This document shows, in pieces, positions 1,948 to 17,722 of a DNA stretch of 64,000 nucleotides. Positions within the stretch are counted from its first letter, which is position 1, and each line of letters begins with the position of its first letter. Location: sequence record PV467748.1. One strand, 5' to 3'. The notes under the pieces were generated by a model. That model was given only the letters and a program-made list of their open reading frames with translations. It ran no database searches and was not told where the DNA came from. This DNA comes from a phage. The translations under genes and the position numbers were made by a program.

Positions 1948-3930
1948 ATGTCTTTATTATCACCGGGCATTGAGCTCAAAGAAACGTCCGTACAGAGTAC
2001 TGTCGTTCGTAACGCAACGGGTCGTGCAGCGCTGGTTGGTAAATTCCAGTGGGGCCCTGCTTTCCAGGTAACTCAAATTACTAACGAAGTTGAACTGGTG
2101 GATTTGTTTGGAGGTCCTAACAACGAAGTGGCAGATTATTTTATGTCTGGTATGAACTTCCTCCAATATGGTAACGACCTTCGTACTGTTCGTGTTGTTA
2201 ACCGTGAATTCGCTAAAAACGCATCTCCTGTTGCAGGCAATATCGAAACCACTATTACTACGGCTGGTTCTAACTATGCAGTAGGCGATAAAATTAATAT
2301 CAAGCACAACCAAACTGTTGTTGAATCTGAAGGTCGTGTGACTTCTGTAGATACGGATGGTAAAATTCTTTCCGTGTTTATCCCATCAGCAAAAATTATT
2401 GCTTATGCACGTTCTTTAAACCAGTATCCTACCCTGGGCCCGGCTTGGACGGCTGAAGTTACTTCCGCTTCTTCTGGTGTTTCCGGTACTATTACCGTAG
2501 GTAAAATTGTTACGGATTCAGGTATTCTTTTAACTGAAGCAGAGAACAGTGAAGAAGCTATTACTTCCCTGGAATTCCAAGCATCTCTTAAGAAATTTGC
2601 TATGCCAGGCGTAGTTGCTCTTTATCCAGGCGAAATTGGTTCCACCTTAGAAGTAGAAATCGTTTCCAAAGCCGCTTATGATGTTGGTTCTTCTAAAATG
2701 CTGGATATTTATCCGGGCGGTGGTTCTCGTGCTTCTATTGCCAAGGCGGTATTTAATTACGGGCCACAAACAGATGACCAATACGCGATTATTGTTCGTC
2801 GTGATGGCGCTATCGTAGAATCTGTCGTACTTTCTACCAAAGAAGGTGAAAAAGACGTTTACGGTAATAACATTTATCTTGACGACTATTTCGCTAAAGG
2901 TACTTCTAACTATATTTTTGCTACCTCTTTGAACTGGCCTAAAGGCTTCAGCGGTATCATTAATCTGATGGGTGGTGTATCTGCTAACGATCAGGTTACT
3001 GCGAGTGATTTGATGCAGGGTTGGGATTTGTTCGCCGACCGTGAAGCCCTCCATATTAACCTTTTGATTGCCGGGGCCGTTGCCGGTGAAGGTGATGAAG
3101 TTGCTTCTACCGTCCAGAAACACGTTGTTAGTATTGCTGATGAACGTCAGGATTGCTTGGCATTTATTTCTCCTCCTAAAGGACTGTTGGTTAACGTTCC
3201 ATTGACTCGTGCAGTAGATAATCTTATCGACTGGCGTACCGGTGCAGGTACTTTCGATACCAACAACATGAACATTAGCACCACTTATGCTGCTATTGAC
3301 GGTAACTATAAATATCAGTATGACAAATATAATGACGTAAACCGTTGGGTGCCTCTGGCAGCTGATATGGCTGGTTTGTGTGCGCGTACAGATGATGTTT
3401 CTCAGCCTTGGATGTCTCCGGCCGGTTATAACCGTGGTCAGATTCTTAACGTTTTGAAATTGGCAATTGAACCCCGTCAAGCTCAACGCGACCGCATGTA
3501 CCAAGAAGCTATTAACCCGGTTGTTGGTTTTGCTGGTGGCGATGGTTTCGTATTGTTTGGTGATAAGACTGCAACTAAAGTTCCATCTCCGATGGACCAT
3601 ATTAACGTTCGCCGTCTGTTCAATATGCTTAAGAAAAATATCGGTGATGCCTCTAAATATAAACTGTTTGAATTGAACGATAACTTCACTCGTTCAAGCT
3701 TCCGTATGGAAGTTTCTCAGTACTTAGATGGTATTAAGGCACTTGGTGGGATTTATGAAGGACGTGTGGTTTGTGATACTACAGTGAACACCCCTGCGGT
3801 TATAGACCGTAATGAGTTTATTGCTAATATCTACGTTAAACCTTCTCGTTCCATTAACTACATCACGTTGAACTTCGTTGCAACGAGCACTGGTGCTGAT
3901 TTTGATGAATTGATTGGACCTTTAGTATAA
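1948..3930 (+). CDS. 18: contractile tail sheath protein
   Basis: 660 aa; N-terminus and length match T4 gp18; synteny. Confidence 0.95.
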   Translation: MSLLSPGIELKETSVQSTVVRNATGRAALVGKFQWGPAFQVTQITNEVELVDLFGGPNNEVADYFMSGMNFLQYGNDLRTVRVVNREFAKNASPVAGNIETTITTAGSNYAVGDKINIKHNQTVVESEGRVTSVDTDGKILSVFIPSAKIIAYARSLNQYPTLGPAWTAEVTSASSGVSGTITVGKIVTDSGILLTEAENSEEAITSLEFQASLKKFAMPGVVALYPGEIGSTLEVEIVSKAAYDVGSSKMLDIYPGGGSRASIAKAVFNYGPQTDDQYAIIVRRDGAIVESVVLSTKEGEKDVYGNNIYLDDYFAKGTSNYIFATSLNWPKGFSGIINLMGGVSANDQVTASDLMQGWDLFADREALHINLLIAGAVAGEGDEVASTVQKHVVSIADERQDCLAFISPPKGLLVNVPLTRAVDNLIDWRTGAGTFDTNNMNISTTYAAIDGNYKYQYDKYNDVNRWVPLAADMAGLCARTDDVSQPWMSPAGYNRGQILNVLKLAIEPRQAQRDRMYQEAINPVVGFAGGDGFVLFGDKTATKVPSPMDHINVRRLFNMLKKNIGDASKYKLFELNDNFTRSSFRMEVSQYLDGIKALGGIYEGRVVCDTTVNTPAVIDRNEFIANIYVKPSRSINYITLNFVATSTGADFDELIGPLV

Positions 3931-4115: not shown

Positions 4116-4607
4116 ATGGAACTTACCGATATCACTAGGGCTTTTGAATCAGGTGACTTTGCACGCCCTAACCTTTTCGAAGTGGAAATTCCATTTCTTG
4201 GTAAAAACTTTAGCTTTAAATGTAAAGCAGCACCTATGCCGGCAGGCATTGTAGAAAAAGTACCGGTTGGCTACATGAACCGTAAAATTAACGTAGCTGG
4301 TGACCGTACGTTTGATGATTGGACAATTACCATTTATAACGATGATGCACATGACACTCGTCAAGCCATTGTTGATTGGCAGAATCTCTGTCATGGTATG
4401 ACCAATGAAATTACCGGTGCAGCACCTGCAGAATATAAGAAACAAGCAGTAGTTCGCCAGTTCCATCGTGACGGCAAGACTGTGACCAAAGAAGTTACAA
4501 TTTACGGCTTATGGCCTACTAACGTTGGTGAAGTCCAGATGGATTGGGATTCGAACAACGAAGTTGAAACGTTTGAAAGTACGTTCGCTATCGATTGGTG
4601 GGAATGA
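4116..4607 (+). CDS. 19: tail tube protein
   Basis: Start moved to internal Met (MELTDITRAFESGDFARPNLF) giving 163 aa as in T4 gp19; high similarity. Confidence 0.9.
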   Translation: MELTDITRAFESGDFARPNLFEVEIPFLGKNFSFKCKAAPMPAGIVEKVPVGYMNRKINVAGDRTFDDWTITIYNDDAHDTRQAIVDWQNLCHGMTNEITGAAPAEYKKQAVVRQFHRDGKTVTKEVTIYGLWPTNVGEVQMDWDSNNEVETFESTFAIDWWE

Positions 4608-4608
4608 G

Positions 4609-4616
4609 TATAAATA
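4609..4616 (+). promoter_or_regulatory. late promoter TATAAATA upstream of gene 20
   Basis: Exact TATAAATA, followed by a GGAGCTTCGGCTCC tetraloop hairpin at 4629-4642. Confidence 0.55.
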
Positions 4617-4664
4617 GAATTATCAAGGAGCTTCGGCTCCTTATCCCATTCATCGGAGACTCTA

Positions 4665-6239
4665 ATGGCAAACTTTAATACAATATTAAGTTTTCTTAAG
4701 CCATGGGCTAATGAAGACGAAAAAGAATATAAACAACAAATTAATAACAATTTAGAGTCTGTCACCGCACCTAAGCTTGATGATGGCGCTCGCGAAATTG
4801 AGACACAAGAGCAAAATATTCCTTATAATGCTCTTATGCAACAGATGTTTGGTAGTAATGAGCCTGAAGTTAAAAATACCAGGGAACTTATTGATACCTA
4901 CCGTAATTTAATGAACAACTATGAAGTCGACAACGCCGTACAGGAAATTGTGTCTGACGCTATTGTCTATGAGGATGATAAAGAAGTAGTTGCATTGAAT
5001 TTAGACGGGACAGAATTTAGTCAAGCAATTAAAGATAAAATCTTGGCCGAATTCAGTGAAGTTTTAAACCTTTTAAATTTCCAACGTAAAGGCACTGACC
5101 ATTTCCAACGCTGGTATGTAGACTCAAGAATTTTCTTTCATAAAATTATAAACCCTAAAAAAATGAAAGATGGCGTACAAGAGCTTCGTCGCTTAGACCC
5201 ACGCCAAGTCCAATATATTCGAGAAATCGTTACACGTATGGAAGATGGTGTTAAAGTTGTAGACGGATATCGCGAGTTTTTCGTTTATGATACAGGCCAT
5301 GAAAGTTATTGCGCTGATGGACGCATTTATTCGGCCGGGACTAAAGTTAAAATTCCTCGTGCTGCAGTGGTTTATGCACATTCTGGATTATTAGATTGTT
5401 GTGGTAAAAACATCATTGGCTATTTGCAACGTGCTATTAAGCCTGCAAACCAGCTTAAATTGATGGAAGACGCAATGGTCATTTACCGTATTACCCGTGC
5501 TCCCGACCGTCGTGTGTTTTATATCGATACTGGTAATATGCCTTCACGTAAGGCGGCAGCACAAATGCAACATATCATGAACACGATGAAAAACCGTGTT
5601 GTGTATGATGCTTCGACAGGTAAAATTAAAAACCAACAACACAATATGTCCATGACTGAAGACTATTGGTTGCAACGTCGTGATGGTAAAGCGGTAACAG
5701 AAGTTGATACAATGCCAGGTGCTACTGGTATGAGTGATATGGATGACGTTCTTTATTTCCGCACAGCACTTTACCGTGCGTTGCGTGTTCCTGAATCACG
5801 TATCCCTAGCGAGTCTAATTCTGGCGTTATGTTTGATGCTGGTACAGCAATCACTCGTGACGAATTAAAATTCTCTAAATGGATTCGTCAACTACAAAAC
5901 AAATTTGAAGAAATTTTCCTAGACCCGTTAAAAACAAACCTCATTCTTAAAAAGATTATTACAGAAGATGAGTGGGAAAAGGAAATAAATAATATTAAAG
6001 TTACGTTTAACCGTGATAGCTATTTCAGTGAAATGAAAGATGCTGAAATCATGGAACGCAGAATCAATATGCTAACGATGGCTGAACCATTTATTGGTAA
6101 GTATATTTCACATCAAACGGCTATGAAAGATTTCCTCCAAATGACCGACGAAGAAATTAATCAAGAAGCTAAGCAAATTGAAGAAGAGTCTAAAGAGGCT
6201 CGTTTCCAAAACCCAGATGAAGAAGAAGAGGATTTCTAA
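4665..6239 (+). CDS. 20: portal vertex protein
   Basis: 524 aa, same length as T4 gp20; synteny. Confidence 0.95.
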
Positions 6240-7577: not shown

Positions 7578-8393
7578 ATGCTTAAAGAACAACTAATCGC
7601 CGAAGCACAGAATATTGATGCTTCCGTTGCTCTTGACAGTATTTTCGAATCAGTTAATATTTCTCCGGAAGCAAAAGAAACTTTCGGCACTGTATTCGAA
7701 GCTACCGTCAAGCAACACGCCGTGAAACTGGCTGAATCTCACATCGCTGAAATCGCTGAAAAAGCGGAAGAAGAAGTCGAGAAAAATAAAGAAGAAGCTG
7801 AAGAAAAAGCCGATAAGAAAATCCAAGAAGCTGCCGGTCGTTTCCTTGACCACGTTGCTAAAGAATGGATGGCTGAAAACCAGCTGGCTGTTGATAAAGG
7901 TATTAAAGCCGAACTGTTCGAATCCATGTTGATGGGTATGAAAGAACTGTTTGTTGAACACAATGTGGTTGTTCCAGAAGAAGCAGTAGATGTTGTTGCT
8001 GAAATGGAAGAAGAGCTCCAAGAGCAGAAAGATGAAACCGCTCGTCTGTTCGAAGAAGTTGGTAAGCGCGATGCGTATATTAATTACGTACAGCGTGAAG
8101 TTGCTGTTACGGAAGCAACTAAAGACCTGACTGAATCTCAAAAAGAAAAAGTTAGTTCTCTGGTAGAAGGCATGGATTATTCCGATGCATTCGGTAAAAA
8201 AATTGGCGCTATTGTTGAAATGGTTAAAGGTCAGTCTGACGTTGAAAACCCAATCACTGAAGCCGCTATAAATAAAAATGTAGACGATGCTGCGGCACTG
8301 AATTACATTTCAGAAGCAGTTGAAGAAAAAGGCTCTAAGCCTACCCTGTCCTTCGCGGACCTGTCTGCAATCGCAGCATCACGAATTTCTTAA
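7578..8393 (+). CDS. 22: prohead core scaffold protein
   Basis: 271 aa, highly acidic coiled-coil-like; synteny. Confidence 0.9.
   Translation: MLKEQLIAEAQNIDASVALDSIFESVNISPEAKETFGTVFEATVKQHAVKLAESHIAEIAEKAEEEVEKNKEEAEEKADKKIQEAAGRFLDHVAKEWMAENQLAVDKGIKAELFESMLMGMKELFVEHNVVVPEEAVDVVAEMEEELQEQKDETARLFEEVGKRDAYINYVQREVAVTEATKDLTESQKEKVSSLVEGMDYSDAFGKKIGAIVEMVKGQSDVENPITEAAINKNVDDAAALNYISEAVEEKGSKPTLSFADLSAIAASRIS
8267..8274 (+). promoter_or_regulatory. late promoter TATAAATA inside the 3' end of gene 22, likely serving gene 23
   Basis: Exact TATAAATA about 140 nt upstream of the gene 23 ATG. Confidence 0.45.
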
Positions 8394-8414
8394 TTTAATA
8401 AGGTTATACAACAC

Positions 8415-9974
8415 ATGAAAAAGAATGCATTAGTTCAAAAATGGTCCGCTCTGCTGGAAAACGAAGCCCTTCCTGAAATCGTGGGTGCTTCTAAACAAGC
8501 TATCATCGCTAAAATTTTCGAAAACCAGGAACAAGACATCCTGACTGCTCCGGAATACCGTGATGAAAAAATCTCTGAAGCATTTGGTTCTTTCCTGACC
8601 GAAGCTGAAATTGGTGGTGACCACGGTTATGATGCTACCAATATCGCAGCTGGCCAGACTTCTGGTGCTGTAACTCAGATTGGGCCGGCAGTAATGGGTA
8701 TGGTTCGTCGTGCTATTCCTCATCTGATTGCTTTTGATATTTGTGGTGTTCAGCCTCTGAATAACCCTACCGGCCAGGTATTTGCCCTTCGTGCAGTTTA
8801 TGGTAAAGACCCTATCGCTGCTGGCGCTAAAGAAGCTTTCCATCCGATGTATTCTCCGGACGCTATGTTCTCTGGTCAGGGCGCTGCTCAGACTTTTGAA
8901 GCACTGGCTGCAAGCAAAGTTCTGGAAGTTGGTAAAATTTATTCTCACTTCTTCGAAGCTACCGGTGCTGCACACTTCCAGGCTGTTGAAGCTGTAACCG
9001 TTGATGCTGCTGCTACCGATGCCGCTAAACTGGATGCTGCTGTTACCGCTTTGATTGAAGCTGGTAAGTTGGCTGAATTGGCTGAAGGTATGGCTACTTC
9101 TATCGCTGAACTTCAGGAAGGCTTTAACGGTTCTACTGATAACCCGTGGAACGAAATGGGCTTCCGTATCGATAAACAAGTTATCGAAGCTAAATCTCGT
9201 CAGCTGAAAGCAAGCTACTCTATCGAACTGGCACAGGACCTTCGTGCAGTACACGGTATGGATGCAGATGCTGAACTGTCCGGTATCCTTGCTACCGAAA
9301 TTATGCTCGAAATCAACCGTGAAGTTATCGATTGGATTAACTACTCTGCACAGGTTGGTAAATCTGGTATGACCAACACCGTTGGCGCTAAAGCTGGTGT
9401 GTTTGACTTCCAGGACCCGATTGATATCCGTGGTGCTCGTTGGGCCGGTGAGAGCTTTAAAGCCCTTCTGTTCCAGATTGATAAAGAAGCAGCCGAAATC
9501 GCTCGTCAGACCGGTCGTGGTGCTGGTAACTTCATCATCGCTTCCCGTAACGTAGTTAACGTACTGGCTGCAGTTGATACTTCTGTAAGTTATGCAGCTC
9601 AAGGTCTGGGTCAGGGTTTCAACGTTGACACAACCAAAGCAGTATTTGCCGGTGTTCTTGGTGGTAAATATCGTGTTTACATCGACCAGTATGCTCGTTC
9701 CGATTACTTCACCATCGGTTATAAAGGTTCCAACGAAATGGACGCAGGTATCTACTATGCTCCGTACGTTGCACTGACTCCGCTGCGTGGTTCCGATCCG
9801 AAGAACTTCCAACCGGTAATGGGCTTCAAAACTCGTTACGGTATCGGTATTAACCCGTTCGCTGACCCAGCTGCTCAGGCGCCTACCAAACGTATTCAGA
9901 ATGGTATGCCTGACATCGTTAACAGCCTCGGTCTGAATGGTTACTTCCGTCGCGTATATGTTAAAGGTATCTAA
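8415..9974 (+). CDS. 23: major capsid protein
   Basis: 519 aa; strong similarity to T4 gp23. Confidence 0.97.
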   Translation: MKKNALVQKWSALLENEALPEIVGASKQAIIAKIFENQEQDILTAPEYRDEKISEAFGSFLTEAEIGGDHGYDATNIAAGQTSGAVTQIGPAVMGMVRRAIPHLIAFDICGVQPLNNPTGQVFALRAVYGKDPIAAGAKEAFHPMYSPDAMFSGQGAAQTFEALAASKVLEVGKIYSHFFEATGAAHFQAVEAVTVDAAATDAAKLDAAVTALIEAGKLAELAEGMATSIAELQEGFNGSTDNPWNEMGFRIDKQVIEAKSRQLKASYSIELAQDLRAVHGMDADAELSGILATEIMLEINREVIDWINYSAQVGKSGMTNTVGAKAGVFDFQDPIDIRGARWAGESFKALLFQIDKEAAEIARQTGRGAGNFIIASRNVVNVLAAVDTSVSYAAQGLGQGFNVDTTKAVFAGVLGGKYRVYIDQYARSDYFTIGYKGSNEMDAGIYYAPYVALTPLRGSDPKNFQPVMGFKTRYGIGINPFADPAAQAPTKRIQNGMPDIVNSLGLNGYFRRVYVKGI

Positions 9975-9989
9975 TATAAACCTTATTAT

Positions 9990-10007
9990 GGGAGACTTCG
10001 GTCTCCC
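9990..10007 (+). terminator. intrinsic terminator after gene 23
   Basis: GGGAGAC-TTCG-GTCTCCC hairpin followed by a T-rich tract. Confidence 0.7.
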
Positions 10008-10022
10008 ATTCTTGTTTCTATA

Positions 10023-10289
10023 CTATGCAATCTTAACACGATGGTTGATGATATCACGGAAGTCAATACGATTTTCTTGGATTTTCAGCCAGTTACCAGA
10101 TTTGTCTTTGGTATGGGTAGAGTATTCACCGTTCCACCAGAAGTCGGTAGCATAAGCCATGGCTTCGTATTTCTTAACTAGTGCATTCACTGCATTACCG
10201 TTAGGATTGGAACCATATTTTTCTACCAGGGCTTTGATGTCTTTATCAAGAGCGGAAAGAGTAGTACGAATAAAGTTTAACTTGTTCAT
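10023..10289 (-). CDS. hypothetical early protein in the 23/24 intergenic slot
   Basis: ORF with GAGGAG SD before the internal Met (MNKLNFIRTT...); own early-type promoter upstream; no recognisable domain. Confidence 0.5.
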   Translation of the reverse strand: MNKLNFIRTTLSALDKDIKALVEKYGSNPNGNAVNALVKKYEAMAYATDFWWNGEYSTHTKDKSGNWLKIQENRIDFRDIINHRVKIA

Positions 10290-10318
10290 TTTTAATCTCC
10301 TCATGTTTTGATAGGTCT

Positions 10319-10348
10319 ATAGTAACATGTGATAACCTTGCTGTAAAC
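10319..10348 (-). promoter_or_regulatory. early sigma70-type promoter (GTTTAC, spacer, TACTAT)
   Basis: Reverse complement reads GTTTAC...TACTATAGACCTATC; member of a repeated promoter/leader family. Confidence 0.5.
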
Positions 10349-10354
10349 AACTTT

Positions 10355-10362
10355 TATAAATA
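10355..10362 (+). promoter_or_regulatory. late promoter TATAAATA upstream of gene 24
   Basis: Exact TATAAATA. Confidence 0.55.
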
Positions 10363-10390
10363 AACATATACCCTCAATAAGGAAAGCGCA

Positions 10391-11674
10391 ATGGCAAAGA
10401 TTAACGAATTACTGCGCGAGTCAACAACTACTTCTAGCAACTCATTGGGTCGCCCTAATCTTGTTGCTTTGACCCGTGCTACAACCAAATTGATTTACCG
10501 TGATATTATTGCTGAACAACGTACTAGCCAGCCTATTGCTGCATTGTATGGTGTCAAATATCTTACTCCTGATAATGAATTTAGCTTCCAAACTGGTGCC
10601 GTTTATGGTGGTGAAGTTGGTTCTAAAGACCGTGAAACTATCCCGGAACTCACAGATAAGGCCCAGGCTATTGCCAAGGGTGAATATTTCAAGTATCAGA
10701 ACATAGTTTATAAGGCTCTTCAAGCAAGCCCACTCGCATCCACTAGCGCTACAGGATTGGCTGATGCTCTTCAAGAAGGTTTAGTGTCATTAACATGTCG
10801 TCTGGTTCCGGACGCTGCTCATACCACTAAATTCGAAGCGAGTGATGTAGAAATCTCTGATGCTGTATTCCAGGTAAATAAATGGAATGCTCCTGTTAAG
10901 ACTCGTAAATTGAAGACTGCTTTGACAGTAGAATTGGCACAGGATATGGAATCAAATGGATTCGACGCCCCTGCATTCTTAGAAGACCTCCTGGCTACAG
11001 TAATGGCAGATGAAATTAATAAAGACGTTCTGCAATCCTTGATTACGGTATCTAAACGTTATAAAGTTACCGGTGTATCTGATAACGGCATCATAGATTT
11101 GACTTATGATAGTGCTCCGGAATCTGCACGTAAACTTTATGAAATTGTTTGTGAGATGAATTCTGAAATCCAGAAAACTACTTCTTATTCTGGTACGTTT
11201 GTTGTGGCTTCAAGTCGTGTGGCTGCAATGCTTGCAGGTTCTGGCTGGTTAAAACATAAACCTGAAGATAATAATTGGCTCCCAGAAACCGCCTATGGGT
11301 ATTTGTTGAATGGATTACCTCTGTTCTGTGACGTTAACAGCCCGTTGGATTATGTTATCGTCGGTGTTAAAGAGAACTATGGTGGTAATGAAGTTGTCGG
11401 TTCTATTTTCTATGCCCCGTATACAGAAGGCCTGGATTTAGACGACCAAGAACACGTTGGCGCTTATAAGGTTATTGTCGACCCGGATTCATTACAGCCT
11501 TCTATTTCTCTGATGGTTCGTTATGCACTGTCCGCTAATCCATACACCGTAGCTAAAGACGATAAAGAAGCTCGTGTTATAGATGCAACTAATATGGATT
11601 TAATGGCGGGCCAGAGTAATATGTCTTATCTGCTTGGTGTTAAACTTCCAGCAATTATTTACGAGGCTGATTAA
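10391..11674 (+). CDS. 24: capsid vertex protein gp24 (ortholog copy)
   Basis: 427 aa; very close to T4 gp24. Confidence 0.95.
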   Translation: MAKINELLRESTTTSSNSLGRPNLVALTRATTKLIYRDIIAEQRTSQPIAALYGVKYLTPDNEFSFQTGAVYGGEVGSKDRETIPELTDKAQAIAKGEYFKYQNIVYKALQASPLASTSATGLADALQEGLVSLTCRLVPDAAHTTKFEASDVEISDAVFQVNKWNAPVKTRKLKTALTVELAQDMESNGFDAPAFLEDLLATVMADEINKDVLQSLITVSKRYKVTGVSDNGIIDLTYDSAPESARKLYEIVCEMNSEIQKTTSYSGTFVVASSRVAAMLAGSGWLKHKPEDNNWLPETAYGYLLNGLPLFCDVNSPLDYVIVGVKENYGGNEVVGSIFYAPYTEGLDLDDQEHVGAYKVIVDPDSLQPSISLMVRYALSANPYTVAKDDKEARVIDATNMDLMAGQSNMSYLLGVKLPAIIYEAD

Positions 11675-12954
11675 TGTCTAAGATTGTAGACCTAATTAAA
11701 GAATCCACATTGACGGCTGCCAACTCGGTTGGCCGTCCTGCTCTTCTTTCATACACCCAAGCAACTAATAAACGAATCTTTAAAGCCTTAGTTGCTGAAC
11801 AAAAAACAAGTCAACCTGTTGCCGCTCTGTACGGGGTTCGTGTACTTAATCCTGATGACAAAATGACTTATCTTGGTGGCGCTACATTTGCAGGCCAGAT
11901 TGGTATGTCGGAACGTGAAAATATTCCTGAATTTACCGATTCGTCTACAGCTTATGCAGCCGGCGATATGTTCCAGTTTGAAAGTGTAGTGTTTAAAGTT
12001 CTGGAAGCATCTCCTTTCGCCGGAACCACAGAAACTGACCTCGGTGAAGTTATTTCTGAAGCAGTGGCTGCTGGGCATATTCGTATGGTATCAGATGCGG
12101 CTATTACTTCTAAATTCGAACAGGGCCATCCTGAAATTGCTGAAGCAGGCTTCCGTATTGATAAGTGGCAGACTGAAGTTAAATCACGTAAACTGAAAAC
12201 TTCATTGACCGTCGAATTAGCCCAAGATCTAGAATCAAACGGGTTTAATGCTCCTAATTTCGTTGAAAACCTGCTAGGCATTCAAATGGCAGAAGAAATT
12301 AATAAGGACGTATTACAGTCATTAATTACGGTGAGTTCTCGTTTTAAAGTCCAGGGTGTTTCCGAAAAGGGTGTATTGGACCTTACCAACCCACGTTACG
12401 ATAATGCTCAGGACCGTGCTCGTACATTGTATTATTACATGTGTGAGATGAACTCTGCCGTACAACGCCAGACTTCTTTCGCTGGGACTTATGCAGTAGC
12501 TAGTTCTCGTTGTGCCGCTATTCTTGCCGCATCTGGTTGGGTTGAGAAAAAGGAAGACCAAGACGAACTGGCTTACGGTATATTAAAAAATGGCCTGCCT
12601 CTTTATGCCGATATGAATAGTCCGTGTGATTATGTTATTGTTGGTGTAAATGCTCAGATGGGTGAAGGACAGACGGTCGCATCTTTATATTATGCGCCTT
12701 ATACGGAAGGTTTGAATGAGGTTGATGAGGAAGGGGATACTTCAGTAGGTGAATTTAAGGTTATTGTTGACCCGGAAAGCTTACAACCTACAGTAGCATT
12801 GCTTGCTCGTTATGCATTGACTGCAAACCCTTATACCGTCGCTAAGGACGATAAAGAAGCCCGCATTATTGATGGTTCTGATATGGACAAAATGGCTAAT
12901 CAAAGTCAATTGAGTTCTTATCTCGGTGTAAAATTACCACCTTTAGAAAAATAA
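11674..12954 (+). CDS. capsid vertex protein paralog (second, divergent gp24-like copy)
   Basis: 426 aa; alignable over full length with the upstream gp24 (shared LQSLITVS, YAPYTEGL, KVIVDPxSLQP, ANPYTVAKDDKEAR blocks) at roughly half identity. Confidence 0.85.
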   Translation: MSKIVDLIKESTLTAANSVGRPALLSYTQATNKRIFKALVAEQKTSQPVAALYGVRVLNPDDKMTYLGGATFAGQIGMSERENIPEFTDSSTAYAAGDMFQFESVVFKVLEASPFAGTTETDLGEVISEAVAAGHIRMVSDAAITSKFEQGHPEIAEAGFRIDKWQTEVKSRKLKTSLTVELAQDLESNGFNAPNFVENLLGIQMAEEINKDVLQSLITVSSRFKVQGVSEKGVLDLTNPRYDNAQDRARTLYYYMCEMNSAVQRQTSFAGTYAVASSRCAAILAASGWVEKKEDQDELAYGILKNGLPLYADMNSPCDYVIVGVNAQMGEGQTVASLYYAPYTEGLNEVDEEGDTSVGEFKVIVDPESLQPTVALLARYALTANPYTVAKDDKEARIIDGSDMDKMANQSQLSSYLGVKLPPLEK

Positions 12955-12980: not shown

Positions 12981-13988
12981 TTATTTGGATACTAGGTCAA
13001 TCCATACTGCTCGTAGGGTATCTTTTACACACTCAACGAGCTGCTTTTTAACTTCAACAGGATTTTCAGCATCAGTTAATTCTAATTCTTCACGGGCAGC
13101 TTCTTCTAAGATATCTTGGACTGTCAAGCCCATTACCTTTCCAAAATCCTTCGGCGATACTTCACCAATCTTACTGATGACGTTGTTAATGCGGTTAACA
13201 GTCACATAATCAGTGAATTGCCACATCAAGTCCATATCGTCTTGGGATAAAACCACTGCAACTTTAATAGGCTTATCAGACTTTTTCTTCTCGCTGAATT
13301 TAGAGTTCTTACATTTAATCGCTACACGATTTCCGTTTGGAAGCCAGATAGGAACATCAGGTTTCAGTACAAAGCCTTCGGCGGTGAATACTTTACCTTC
13401 TACCTTAGGAATAAAATCTGTTGAGTTCGCAATAGTTAGGCCAGCATTATCCACTGCAAAATTATAATCAGGAACAACAGAATCAAAATCATTAGGAAGT
13501 TTAATAAGGTCTTCAAAGCTACCAGTGGCCAGACATGGCGCAACCTTAAACTTATGGATAATACAGAAGGCTTCCATCAATGTATCGGATAGAACAGATT
13601 CTGAGCCATCTTCCTTAGTAACTCGGATATCGAACACATAAAAGTCTTTATCACCGTAATCCACATTCTTCTGGATACCCGGCCCAGCGAATTCGCCGTA
13701 AATTTGATATGACTGATAATTAATCGATTCAATTAGATGTTGAACGGATTTAATAGAATCAGCATAATTCTTTAAAACAATTTCATAACCAAAGAAATCT
13801 TCAGCAGGGAGGATAGGGCCAGTGCGCTTGGCGCATGTGACTGCGTCACGTTCTATGATTAAACTAAAGTTGGTCCCATGAATCTTCTCACGTGCCACCC
13901 ATTCACCACCAGTCAAACCGTTAGTACGGAGTTTTTCGATAAACTTACTGTTGTAGTGGTTTTCGAGACTGCTATATTTCTTGAACAT
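12981..13988 (-). CDS. rnlB: RNA ligase 2
   Basis: 335 aa; near-identical N-terminus to T4 Rnl2, including the KIHG nucleotidyltransferase lysine motif. Confidence 0.95.
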
Positions 13989-14102: not shown

Positions 14103-14312
14103 TTACTTTGAACCAGAACGCGCTTTGCGCCGAACCTTGTTGTTCAATCTTTTACGATAAACAACCTTTTCTTTCGCTTTAAATTTGGCCTTGGCTTGTT
14201 CTACATCAACCCATGCTTTGGCCATGTCCTTAGCGGTCCCGCCCATTTTTTTAGCAATTTCTATAAAATTCAACCCAGATTCGTGTAAAAAATGTACTTT
14301 AACCTTGTCCAT
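14103..14312 (-). CDS. small basic protein with a predicted helix-turn-helix
   Basis: 69 aa; HTH-like segment LNFIEIAKKMGGTAKDMAKAW and a lysine/arginine-rich tail; sits in the T4 24.2/24.3 position. Confidence 0.45.
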   Translation of the reverse strand: MDKVKVHFLHESGLNFIEIAKKMGGTAKDMAKAWVDVEQAKAKFKAKEKVVYRKRLNNKVRRKARSGSK

Positions 14313-14397
14313 AACAATTCTCTCGTTGAGCCGGTAAAACTCATCTTAACATAGAATTTTTAACTTGTAAACAGGAATTTTGTACTTTAATGCAAAA

Positions 14398-14413
14398 TGG
14401 GCCTTGCGGCCCA
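14398..14413 (-). terminator. intrinsic terminator downstream of hoc
   Basis: TGGGCC-TTGC-GGCCCA hairpin with a T-tract on the - strand. Confidence 0.55.
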
Positions 14414-14416
14414 TAA

Positions 14417-15265
14417 TTAATAAACGTAATCGTATATAATACCAGCTTCTAAAGTGGTGCGATGAATAATTCGACCATTACGAGATTCTTGTACATCAAC
14501 CTCTGGATAGTCGGTAATCATTTTTTGAAGTGTATACCGGTGCAAATAATACGGGCTATCCGGGTCATCTGTTTTCCAGTCTTTGCCTTCAAGAGTCATT
14601 TTCTGGATTTCATCCATAACCCACCAACCGCACCAAATATAAGCTGAATTACGTACTGGCAATGGATGAACGTAAGGTAATTCGCCATCCGGAACCGGTG
14701 CGACTTTAGCCGTGACCGTTACATTACCGGTTTTTGTGACAGTCGCCTGGTTATAATCAGCCGCCGAAACCACAACAGAAACTTCAATAACCTGTGAACC
14801 TTCGGTGCTTGTGTCGATTGTTAGAGTATCCGTGGTGCCAACTACAGGAGAACCGTCTTTCTTCCAAGAATAGGCAAAAGTAGCGCCAGCAGGCGCGCCG
14901 ACTACATCCGCTTTAAAAGAAGCTGGAGTGCCTTCCGGAACATTAATTGATTCTGGGGTTAATGTCACAGAAACACCAGACATAGTTTTATTCTGGATAG
15001 TTAAAGTCGTCTCAGCTTCAGCAGTTTCCGGTTCGCCGTCCGCTGGTGTAGTTGTTGCAACAACTTTAATAGTCTTGCTGCCTGCTGGACCAACAGCAAC
15101 ATAATCCATTGCAGCAGTCACAGAAGATTGAGGAACGCCATCAACGGTCCAGACAAATGATTCAGTACCTTCAGCTGCAGCACCGGAACCGGTCGCAGTG
15201 AAATTGGTTGTTGCTCCAATAACGGCCGTAGCCGCCAAAGGAGAAATATCTACGGTATAAGCCAT
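14417..15265 (-). CDS. hoc: highly immunogenic outer capsid protein Hoc (short form)
   Basis: 282 aa; Ig-like repeats plus the conserved C-terminal capsid-binding segment (YIWCGWWVMDEIQKM...); about one Ig domain shorter than T4 Hoc. Confidence 0.9.
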   Translation of the reverse strand: MAYTVDISPLAATAVIGATTNFTATGSGAAAEGTESFVWTVDGVPQSSVTAAMDYVAVGPAGSKTIKVVATTTPADGEPETAEAETTLTIQNKTMSGVSVTLTPESINVPEGTPASFKADVVGAPAGATFAYSWKKDGSPVVGTTDTLTIDTSTEGSQVIEVSVVVSAADYNQATVTKTGNVTVTAKVAPVPDGELPYVHPLPVRNSAYIWCGWWVMDEIQKMTLEGKDWKTDDPDSPYYLHRYTLQKMITDYPEVDVQESRNGRIIHRTTLEAGIIYDYVY

Positions 15266-15274
15266 AATAAACCC

Positions 15275-15946
15275 TTATTTTAAAGTGACAAAAGATGAGT
15301 TACGAGTTTCTCGTACTAGAACAGACCCATTACGATTGATGTAATAAATCAAGCTGAATAGTGTTTGGTGTGCGGTAGGATGTTGGAAAGCAGTTGGACG
15401 TTCTTTCCAATCCGGAGTCTCAGAAATCCATTGGTAAATCCACCAAGGAACAGTGCAATAACCTGGGTTCTTACCGATAAGCAAAAGATTAGGACTGAAG
15501 TTTTCAGGTAAAGAGAATACAGGTTTTTCAGATTCAACAACCTTGGCTACAGCCTTTTTGAATTTCTCTTCGTCAAATGGAACATCCTCTTCGATAATCT
15601 CTACCTTAGGAAGTTCGGCTACCTCTATTACTTCAACAACTGCCTCAGGAGCATCGAACAACAGGGTTGCTTCTTCTTTAGCTGGTTCTACACCTTCGAT
15701 AAAATCATTATCACCAGTGAGTTCGTCAGCAGCATCAATCAAATCAGAAATAGACAACCCGTCTGTTTCCGGAAGTGGTTCGTCAGCCAAGGCTTTAAGG
15801 CCTTCAGAGATATCGATAATCAAATTATCAAACGAACGGGTTTTCTTAAGTTTTAAACCGAACTGTTCGCCGTATTCGATTAACTTAGCTTTAGCTTCTT
15901 TTTTGTCTTTGAGTGCACGAAGCTCTTCAATATATTGAGTATCCAT
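15275..15946 (-). CDS. inh: inhibitor of prohead protease
   Basis: 223 aa; N-terminus resembles T4 Inh; synteny hoc-inh. Confidence 0.8.
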   Translation of the reverse strand: MDTQYIEELRALKDKKEAKAKLIEYGEQFGLKLKKTRSFDNLIIDISEGLKALADEPLPETDGLSISDLIDAADELTGDNDFIEGVEPAKEEATLLFDAPEAVVEVIEVAELPKVEIIEEDVPFDEEKFKKAVAKVVESEKPVFSLPENFSPNLLLIGKNPGYCTVPWWIYQWISETPDWKERPTAFQHPTAHQTLFSLIYYINRNGSVLVRETRNSSFVTLK

Positions 15947-15965
15947 AATTAGTCTCTTGTTGGTG

Positions 15966-15973
15966 TATAAATA
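15966..15973 (+). promoter_or_regulatory. late promoter TATAAATA upstream of uvsW
   Basis: Exact TATAAATA. Confidence 0.5.
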
Positions 15974-15979
15974 TAACTA

Positions 15980-15987
15980 TATTTATA
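15980..15987 (-). promoter_or_regulatory. late promoter (TATAAATA on the - strand) upstream of inh
   Basis: Reverse complement is TATAAATA; divergent from the uvsW late promoter. Confidence 0.45.
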
Positions 15988-16001
15988 ACTGAGAATTACT
16001 T

Positions 16002-17498
16002 ATGCAAATTCAAGTACATTTTGATAATTTTAGTCATGTCCGTATCGAGTGTGATGAATCCACATTCTACGAACTCAGAGACTATTTTAGCTTTGAAGCT
16101 GATGGGTATAAATTCAACCCTAAATTTCGTTATGGGCAATGGGATGGACGTATTCGTCTTCTGGATTATAACCGTAAACTTCCTTATGGATTGGTTCCGC
16201 AAATTAAAAAGTTCGCCGAACAATTTGAATATTCTCTGTGGATTGACCCACGTATTCTTGAACAGGAAGATATTTCTCGTGAAGATTTTGACTCATGGGT
16301 AGCTTCTCAAGAAATTTATTCAGGGTCTACCAAGATTGAGCCTCATTGGTATCAGAATGAAGCTGTATACAACGGCCTGACAAAACGTCGCGCAATTCTG
16401 AATTTACCTACATCCGCAGGTAAATCATTGATTCAGGCGCTCCTGAGTCGATATTACGTTGAGAACTATGAAGGTAAAATTCTTATATTAGTTCCTACTA
16501 CTGCACTTGTCGACCAGATGATTAATGACTTCATCGATTATAGATTGTTCCCTAAAGCAGAAATGCTTGGTATTCGTTCAGGTACTGCTCGTGATTCTGA
16601 TGCAATGATTTACGTTTCAACTTATCAAACTGCTATCAAGCAACCTAAAGAATGGTTTGCTCAGTTTGGTATGTTTATGAACGATGAATGCCACTTGGCT
16701 ACAGGTAAATCTATTTCTACTATCATCGAAGGCCTAACCAACTGTATGTTTAAATTCGGTTTGTCTGGTTCTTTAAAAGATGGTAAAGCTAATTTAATGC
16801 AATATATGGGTTTGTTTGGTGATGTGTTTAAGCCAGTATCCACCTCCCAGTTAATGGAAGAAGGACAGGTTACCGACCTTAAAATCAACAGTATTTTCCT
16901 TCGATACCCAGACGAATTCACTGTTAAGATGAAAGGTAAAGATTACCAATCAGAAATCAAGGTCATTACTAAGGCTACTCGTCGTAATAAATGGGTTGCT
17001 AATTTAGCTGTTAAACTCGCTAAGAAAGAAGAGAACGTATTCCTGATGTTTAAAAACATCGAACACGGTAAAACTCTTTTTGAAATGGTTAAAGAGCAAC
17101 ATAAAGAAGTTTATTACGTATCAGGTGAAGTTAATACCGAAACGCGTAATGCTCTGAAAGTAATGGCGGAAAATGGTAAGGGTATTATTGTTGTTGCAAG
17201 TTATGGTGTGTTCTCTACTGGTATTTCCGTTAAGAACCTTCATCACGTTGTATTTGCCCACCCAGTAAAATCCAAAATCATTGTACTCCAGACAATTGGT
17301 CGTGTACTCCGTAAACATGCCTCTAAATCAACAGCACAGGTATGGGATATCATCGACGACATGGGTGTTAAGCCTAAATCAGCTACGGCTAAAAAGAAAT
17401 ATGTTCATTTGAACTACGCCCTCAAACACGCTTTAGAACGTATTCAACGTTATGCTGATGAGAAATTTAATTACGTAATGAAACAGGTGGATTTATGA
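16002..17498 (+). CDS. uvsW: UvsW DNA/RNA helicase (SF2)
   Basis: 498 aa; helicase motifs (LNLPTSAGKS, DECH); high similarity to T4 UvsW. Confidence 0.95.
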   Translation: MQIQVHFDNFSHVRIECDESTFYELRDYFSFEADGYKFNPKFRYGQWDGRIRLLDYNRKLPYGLVPQIKKFAEQFEYSLWIDPRILEQEDISREDFDSWVASQEIYSGSTKIEPHWYQNEAVYNGLTKRRAILNLPTSAGKSLIQALLSRYYVENYEGKILILVPTTALVDQMINDFIDYRLFPKAEMLGIRSGTARDSDAMIYVSTYQTAIKQPKEWFAQFGMFMNDECHLATGKSISTIIEGLTNCMFKFGLSGSLKDGKANLMQYMGLFGDVFKPVSTSQLMEEGQVTDLKINSIFLRYPDEFTVKMKGKDYQSEIKVITKATRRNKWVANLAVKLAKKEENVFLMFKNIEHGKTLFEMVKEQHKEVYYVSGEVNTETRNALKVMAENGKGIIVVASYGVFSTGISVKNLHHVVFAHPVKSKIIVLQTIGRVLRKHASKSTAQVWDIIDDMGVKPKSATAKKKYVHLNYALKHALERIQRYADEKFNYVMKQVDL

Positions 17499-17722
17499 AA
17501 ACCTTTAAAGAAGTTATTCAAGAAGCATCTATTGAAAGCTTCATGGCTAAAATTGGTTCTTGTCAGACTATGGATGGTCTGAAGGAATTAGAAAAGTATT
17601 ACAAAACTCGTAGTAAGGAAGCTGAACTTCGTGATTCGGACGATATTAGCGTGCGTGATGCATTGGCTGGTAAGAGAGCTGAATTGGAGTCGATGGACGA
17701 CGAGGAAGAGGAAGATTTCTAA
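17495..17722 (+). CDS. uvsW.1: UvsW.1 small acidic protein
   Basis: 75 aa; ATGA overlap with the uvsW stop; same position as in T4. Confidence 0.8.
   Translation: MKTFKEVIQEASIESFMAKIGSCQTMDGLKELEKYYKTRSKEAELRDSDDISVRDALAGKRAELESMDDEEEEDF

Follow-up and report, generated by a model that had tools for sequence, protein, structure and literature searches.

The 64,000-nucleotide stretch of phage DNA analyzed here (sequence record PV467748.1, hereafter the window) carries on its minus strand a hoc gene, flanked on both sides by genes that are familiar from T4 and its relatives. The genes and signals assigned at and around this locus are the following:

10391-11674 and 11674-12954, plus strand: gp24, in two tandem copies (PHROGs)
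12981-13988, minus strand: rnlB (PHROGs)
14103-14312, minus strand: 24.3-like open reading frame (PHROGs)
14397..14414, minus strand: terminator-like hairpin ATGGGCC-GCAA-GGCCCAT, then TTTGCATT (terminator scan)
14417..15265, minus strand: hoc (open reading frame, matches to T4 Hoc and PHROG 1149, 96% identity to the annotated JS98 Hoc)
15266..15277, minus strand: inh-hoc spacer of 9 bp, given here with the inh stop codon TAA (15275-15277); the strand reads TAAGGGTTTATTATG
15275-15946, minus strand: inh, inhibitor of prohead protease (PHROG 1051, E = 2.9e-90)
15980..15987, minus strand: T4-type late promoter box TATAAATA, an exact match, upstream of inh-hoc
16002-17498, plus strand: uvsW (PHROGs)
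17495-17722, plus strand: uvsW.1 (PHROGs)

The order gp24-rnlB-24.3-hoc-inh-uvsW matches that of T4 and JS98, and the hoc-inh order around the gene is also kept in JS10 and IME341. At the DNA level, a 7-kb piece around hoc is 95% identical to ABTNLS3, E33, LQ5, and WG01 and 91.5% identical to JS98, a member of the Straboviridae, Tevenvirinae, genus Dhakavirus, and the identity of this neighborhood to any deposited phage is at most ~95%. The best matches of the window DNA are Dhakavirus records, and the same Hoc is also found in phages filed under Gaprivervirus. Judged by these matches, the window is from a JS98-like T4-type phage.

Several features of the neighborhood are worth recording in their own right. 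The tandem gp24 paralogs, i.e., capsid vertex proteins of 427 and 426 aa, are 56% identical to each other; T4 has one gp24, and the pair is also annotated in JS98, JS10, and IME341. In the window, as in JS98, uvsW.1 is a separate open reading frame of 75 aa with a 4-nt overlap with the uvsW stop, and in the T4 RefSeq record uvsW is one longer CDS, in a region for which that record flags sequence discrepancies. In T4, the homing endonuclease genes segD and segE lie between genes 23 and 24 and between inh and uvsW, respectively; no counterpart of segD was found at window positions 9975-10390 (T4 record 2562-3233), nor one of segE at 15947-16001 (T4 record 8058-8675). The interval between the 24.3-like open reading frame and hoc (14313-14416, 104 bp) does not hold the two-gene insert that JS10 carries at this place on the opposite strand (4259-6138 of the retrieved JS10 piece). 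One gene of that insert encodes a protein of 335 aa, annotated as a tail fiber, which contains a collagen repeat and matches CBM_5_12 below threshold, and the other encodes another, diverged Hoc-like protein of 286 aa (29% identity) that keeps the capsid-binding motifs WxGWWV and ESRNG.

The hoc open reading frame runs for 282 codons from ATG to TAA (stop at 14417-14419), with no N and no frameshift. It is preceded by a Shine-Dalgarno-like AAGGG that overlaps the TAA stop of inh, and the 9-bp gap between the two genes leaves no room for a further upstream domain. The inh gene, immediately upstream, is probably co-transcribed with hoc. From what is known of T4 late promoters, the TATAAATA box, which occurs 16 times in the window where chance would give 6.5, may serve as the late promoter for inh-hoc. 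Two such boxes lie back to back in the 55-bp intergenic region between inh and uvsW, one (15966-15973, plus strand) facing uvsW and the other (15980-15987, minus strand) facing inh-hoc. On the other side of the gene, 2 nt past the hoc stop, lies the putative terminator, recognized by its consensus match only, with a 7-bp stem that includes 5 GC pairs and a T-rich tail. Spacing, Shine-Dalgarno sequence, late box, and hairpin mark hoc as a compact and complete member of a late transcription unit.

A preliminary description of this DNA, made from the letters alone, had named the product Hoc and had contrasted its 282 aa with the 376 aa of the T4 protein, and both the name and the lengths hold. 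In a phmmer search of PDB sequences the 282-aa protein matched T4 Hoc (5vf3_Z, 376 aa) with E = 6.2e-124, and it matched PHROG 1149, "Hoc-like head decoration", with E = 1.6e-109; T4 hoc is annotated as a CDS of 1131 nt, or 376 aa. The identity of the protein is established by these matches, and its shortfall of 94 aa equals one Ig-like module. The 282 residues divide into three modules, all encoded on the minus strand:

14990..15265, minus strand: Ig-like domain 1, residues 1-92, the distal tip module, ortholog of T4 Ig1
14705..14989, minus strand: Ig-like domain 2, residues 93-187, capsid-proximal, with the KTM linker at its start, ortholog of T4 Ig3
14420..14704, minus strand: C-terminal capsid-binding domain, residues 188-282, 85% identical to the T4 C-domain

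This division rests on an alignment, on pairwise module identities, and on a structural model. The MAFFT alignment of the window Hoc with those of JS98, T4, JS10, and IME341 contains a single contiguous gap of 94-96 residues in the window protein, opposite T4 residues ~93-188. When the proteins were divided at their repeated [N/K]-K-[T/P]-x linker and the modules compared pairwise, the first module of the window was 55% identical to T4 Ig1, 26% to T4 Ig2, and 31% to T4 Ig3, and 95% identical to Ig1 of IME341. The second was 64% identical to T4 Ig3 and 34% to T4 Ig2, and 82-83% identical to Ig4 of JS10 and IME341, while the two Ig modules of the window share 24% protein identity with each other. 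The orthology of the modules is established by these values, and by the same comparison the module absent relative to T4 is the internal Ig2 (T4 93-188), for which the best value in the window was 34%. This T4 Ig2 is the domain that carries weak PKD-type Pfam matches in T4 Hoc.

The AlphaFold2 model, built from an alignment of 33 sequences that are all close relatives (74-97% identical), has a mean pLDDT of 88.6 and consists of two all-beta modules and an alpha/beta C-domain. The beta strands span residues 4-91 (pLDDT 87-96) and 99-185 (pLDDT 90-96), and they are followed by a linker of lower confidence and by an alpha/beta unit at 202-273. The top Foldseek match of the model is 8t1x_X, the C-domain of T4 Hoc in complex with the gp23* capsomer (E = 7e-11, TMt 0.83, 86% identity), and over the first ~190-215 residues the matches are the two-Ig tandems of NCAM (1epf), JAM (1f97), and PECAM-1 (5gni), plus the RB49 Hoc (3shs). 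The N-terminal domains of the latter form a linear Ig-like string, as in the window protein (E = 1e-7 over 193 columns), but the two proteins share 21% sequence identity and RB49 Hoc has three Ig domains against two. Within the C-domain, both the ESRNG motif (E260-S261-R262-N263-G264) and the aromatic cluster W211/W214/W215/W230 are invariant in the alignment, and Fokine et al. (2023, PMC10385173) single out ESRNG for its high conservation in the domain by which Hoc binds the capsid.

Sequence profiles were less informative. On the window Hoc, Pfam returned Ig_3, I-set, and Ig_2, all below the gathering score and all on domain 2 (Ig_3 and I-set at residues 99-158), the best being Ig_3 with 21.1 bits where 30 are required. 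The hits on T4 Hoc itself lie close to the threshold on either side, most of them below it. Pfam is a poor domain counter here, and for this reason the domain count was taken from the alignment and the AlphaFold2 model; likewise, the assignment of domain 1 as Ig-like draws on its homology to T4 Ig1 and on the model. The single weak Ig-like stretch seen by Pfam could be read differently, namely as a sign that the protein has the same number of domains as T4 Hoc and that one of them, compact or highly diverged, was missed by the alignment. We give this almost no chance of being true, because the 187 residues ahead of the C-domain suffice for two modules of 92-95 aa but could not hold three, the model contains two beta-sandwiches with a boundary at ~92-98, and the gap relative to T4 is one contiguous block of module length.

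A count of two Ig-like domains is in this way established, and the claim of the preliminary description that this Hoc has one Ig-like domain fewer than T4 Hoc is borne out jointly by alignment, AlphaFold2, and Foldseek. Its statement that the capsid-binding C-terminus is conserved agrees with the 85% identity to the T4 C-domain and the retention of ESRNG. The further statement that the N-terminal Ig region is shorter needs a refinement: the region is indeed one module short, but the missing module is the internal Ig2 of T4 and not an N-terminal one. As for the means of checking suggested there, alignment to T4 Hoc gave the expected module-length gap (~93-188), and domain prediction with Pfam was uninformative, with sub-threshold Ig_3, I-set, and Ig_2 hits on one domain, the two beta-sandwiches being seen in the AlphaFold2 model.

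By alignment and model, the protein has what characterizes the Hoc family: a non-Ig C-domain of ~95 aa that is homologous to residues 281-376 of T4 Hoc and contains ESRNG, an N-terminal string of at least one Ig-like domain and, judging by the gene order and predicted signals, a late head-gene position between inh and 24.3/rnlB. It shares with T4 Hoc (NP_049793.1; PDB 5vf3, 8t1x) the family, the C-domain, the genomic position, and the late signals, and its two Ig domains are orthologous to the first and last of T4. It departs from the four-domain plan of T4 (Ig1-Ig2-Ig3-C) in having two Ig domains before the C-domain, with no counterpart of the third, internal Ig/PKD-like domain (93-188), and hence 282 rather than 376 aa.

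The closest named systems have the same length. The Hoc proteins of JS98 (YP_001595307.1), Bp7, MX01, WG01, QL01, SP18, CJ20, fDHCT2, and others are of 282 aa with 92-97% full-length identity to that of the window, have the same neighbors (inh upstream and 24.3 downstream), and differ from it by point substitutions only, as in the case of JS98 with 96% identity. About 50 phage records are at least 90% identical to the window hoc, and among the matches listed every full-length one of at least 92% identity is a single piece of 846 nt; JS98 hoc is annotated at 849 nt. A sequencing gap hiding a T4-like domain count, which the preliminary description had raised as the finding that would overturn it, was rejected together with a frameshift, given that the open reading frame is continuous, contains no N, is packed against inh at 9 bp, and has the same length in JS98 and other records. 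The intactness of the gene is established on these grounds, together with its Shine-Dalgarno sequence, late promoter box, and terminator and the dN/dS values given below.

Not all close relatives have this length. By length, the 120 best homologs in the database form three groups, with 282 aa in 12, 377 aa in 24, and 467-472 aa in 84 cases. In the 377-aa proteins, P0014, VR20, and UPEC01 among them, the end modules are 97-99% (Ig1), 88-95% (last Ig), and 94-97% (C-domain) identical to those of the window, with values of 99%, 95%, and 97% for P0014. More broadly, the relatives with three or four Ig domains (P479, VR20, and UPEC01 with 377 aa, IME341 with 472 aa, and JS10 with 469 aa) are 95-99% identical to the window in Ig1, 81-95% in the last Ig, and 91-97% in the C-domain, the exception being the diverged Ig1 of JS10 at 49%. 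They differ from the window in one or two extra internal cassettes of 95 aa, located exactly at the KTM linker. The extra module of the 377-aa proteins is 82-87% identical to Ig2 of IME341 and ~30% (28-31%) identical to T4 Ig2, of which it is not an ortholog, and in the 472-aa form a second internal module is added. At the DNA level, the hoc genes of the window and P479 differ by one clean block of 285 nt, whose flanks, AAAACAATG and AAAACTATG, are the codons of the K-T-M linker (a short microhomology, matching at 8/9 positions), and a second 285-nt block, with a longer imperfect repeat at its flanks, separates the gene of P479 from that of IME341. Insertion or deletion of whole cassettes among these phages is established by this pattern.

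The same modular construction could suggest an assembly artifact, in which a gene with at least three Ig repeats was made falsely short when one tandem repeat collapsed during short-read assembly. Hoc is built from tandem modules of ~95 aa, relatives with one or two more exist, and repeat collapse is a known failure mode. Nevertheless, we hold such an artifact to be extremely unlikely, because the modules are too diverged to collapse: Ig1 and Ig2 of the window, with their 24% protein identity, share no long DNA repeat, and the internal cassettes of the relatives are 25-38% (IME341 Ig2) and 25-62% (IME341 Ig3) identical to the two Ig domains of the window. The DNA repeated at the cassette junction amounts to only ~9 nt, the hoc reading frame is exactly kept, and the coding length of 846 nt recurs in JS98 and other separately sequenced genomes (the ~50 records of at least 90% identity).

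The form of selection that acts on the gene was estimated as dN/dS (Nei-Gojobori) against JS98, P479, and IME341, with values of 0.05-0.10 for Ig1, 0.11-0.22 for Ig2, and 0.06-0.07 for the C-domain, and with dS of 0.18-0.82 in the same comparisons. The overall range of 0.05-0.22 establishes purifying selection on all three modules. These values bear on the possibility that the shorter hoc is a decaying, non-functional remnant, a gene shortened by deletion and in the course of being lost, whose product no longer sits on capsids. The hoc gene is non-essential for T4 in the laboratory, and a dispensable protein whose gene is here shorter than in some close relatives might be taken for such a remnant, yet we consider this very unlikely. 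Low dN/dS is seen in every module, the alignment shows no change in ESRNG or in the tryptophan cluster, the gene has kept its expression signals (Shine-Dalgarno sequence, late promoter, and terminator), and the form persists across many isolates filed under at least two genera. Our reading of the sequence comparisons, to which we assign a probability of about 0.93, is that the window has an intact, functional hoc gene encoding the ordinary two-Ig Hoc of a JS98-like T4-type phage.

How common this length is in the wider family was addressed with the C-domain alone, which was searched against 1.84 billion cluster representatives at 50% identity and retrieved 134 proteins. The number of N-terminal domain units was calculated as the length ahead of the C-domain divided by 94 aa, a measure of length that stands in for a count of folds, in a set that may include fragments. 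By this proxy, 10 proteins have no unit, 18 have one, 44 have two, 21 have three, 6 have four, and 32 have five or more, with the C-domain at the N-terminus in the other 3; the two-domain length is the mode of the set, and the three-Ig form of T4 is not the norm. In the literature, Hoc is described, over 650 homologs, as a conserved C-domain joined to Ig-like domains in a string that varies, including one Ig in PG7 (233 aa), two in the second Hoc of Muldoon (314 aa), and ten in Muldoon (1174 aa), and JS98 is part of the C-domain alignment of that study (Fokine et al. 2023, PMC10385173). The window Hoc is therefore already known, being the standard annotated Hoc of JS98-like phages, and variation in Ig number (1-10) is published.

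Another two-Ig protein, the "variant" Hoc of PNJ-9, has been reported to bind MUC2 through its second domain (J Virol 2024, PMC11853027). The PNJ-9 Hoc (Mosigvirus, PQ100635, 1162-2013 of the retrieved piece) resembles that of the window in having two Ig domains, 283 aa, and the conserved C-domain, but it keeps T4 Ig1 and Ig2 (82% each) without Ig3, while the window keeps Ig1 and the Ig3 ortholog without Ig2. The window protein was for this reason rejected as an instance of the published variant, whose architecture is Ig1 + Ig2. Since the two phages keep different Ig domains, two-Ig forms have arisen at least twice, and since the MUC2-binding residues S183/L184/T185 of PNJ-9 lie in the domain absent from the window, the ligand result is not transferable.

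We read the differences in length among the JS98-like phages as follows: the number of domains in this lineage changes when whole cassettes of 95 codons (285 nt) are gained or lost in frame. The breakpoints fall at the short repeated linker AAAACWATG (K-T-M), which opens each internal domain, and near-identical end modules with 0, 1, or 2 internal cassettes give proteins of 282, 377, or ~470 aa. Clean 285-nt blocks are the expected product of in-register recombination, or of slippage, between linker repeats.

On the virion, the 282-aa Hoc would be a fiber of three modules, with the alpha/beta C-domain docking at the center of each gp23 hexamer and the two Ig-like beta-sandwiches projecting outward from it as a short fiber. 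Given the 85% identity of its C-domain to that of T4, we infer that it binds as a monomer at the center of gp23* hexamers on the mature capsid. The T4 Hoc fiber is 180 Å long and has four domains (PMC10385173), and by proportion that of the window would measure ~135 Å. A shorter fiber would differ in the Ig surfaces available for weak attachment to glycans or mucus and for the dispersion of capsids, the latter a role that has been proposed for the Hoc of T4 and RB49 (PMC10385173). The calculated pI of the window Hoc is 4.40, more acidic than the 4.74 of T4, and this acidity is consistent with the capsid-dispersing role. Occupancy of the capsid, fiber length, and ligand binding are thus given here as expectations from the T4 protein and its relatives.

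As a discovery the gene has little value, since its product has the expected size and is orthologous to an already annotated protein, but it has some practical relevance because Hoc is a display platform and a mediator of mucus adherence in phage therapy settings. For users of JS98-like phages, it means a shorter fiber composed of Ig1 and the Ig3 ortholog, and a protein that lacks domains in which part of the published MUC2-binding residues of T4 and PNJ-type Hoc are located. The 285-nt cassette indels among near-identical relatives offer a tidy case of modular evolution, with no new principle. A broader idea, which we put forward tentatively and regard as possible rather than probable, is that the length of Hoc in JS98-like phages may be a fast-switching and selectable trait. 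Ig cassettes would be gained, lost, and exchanged through recombination at the KTM linker, the 2-, 3-, and 4-Ig fibers of near-identical phages would be tuned to different surfaces, and two-Ig forms would have arisen independently by the loss of different domains (Ig2 here and Ig3 in PNJ-9). What has been observed of this are the pattern of cassettes and two separate architectures with two Ig domains each, while adaptive switching is the conjectural part.
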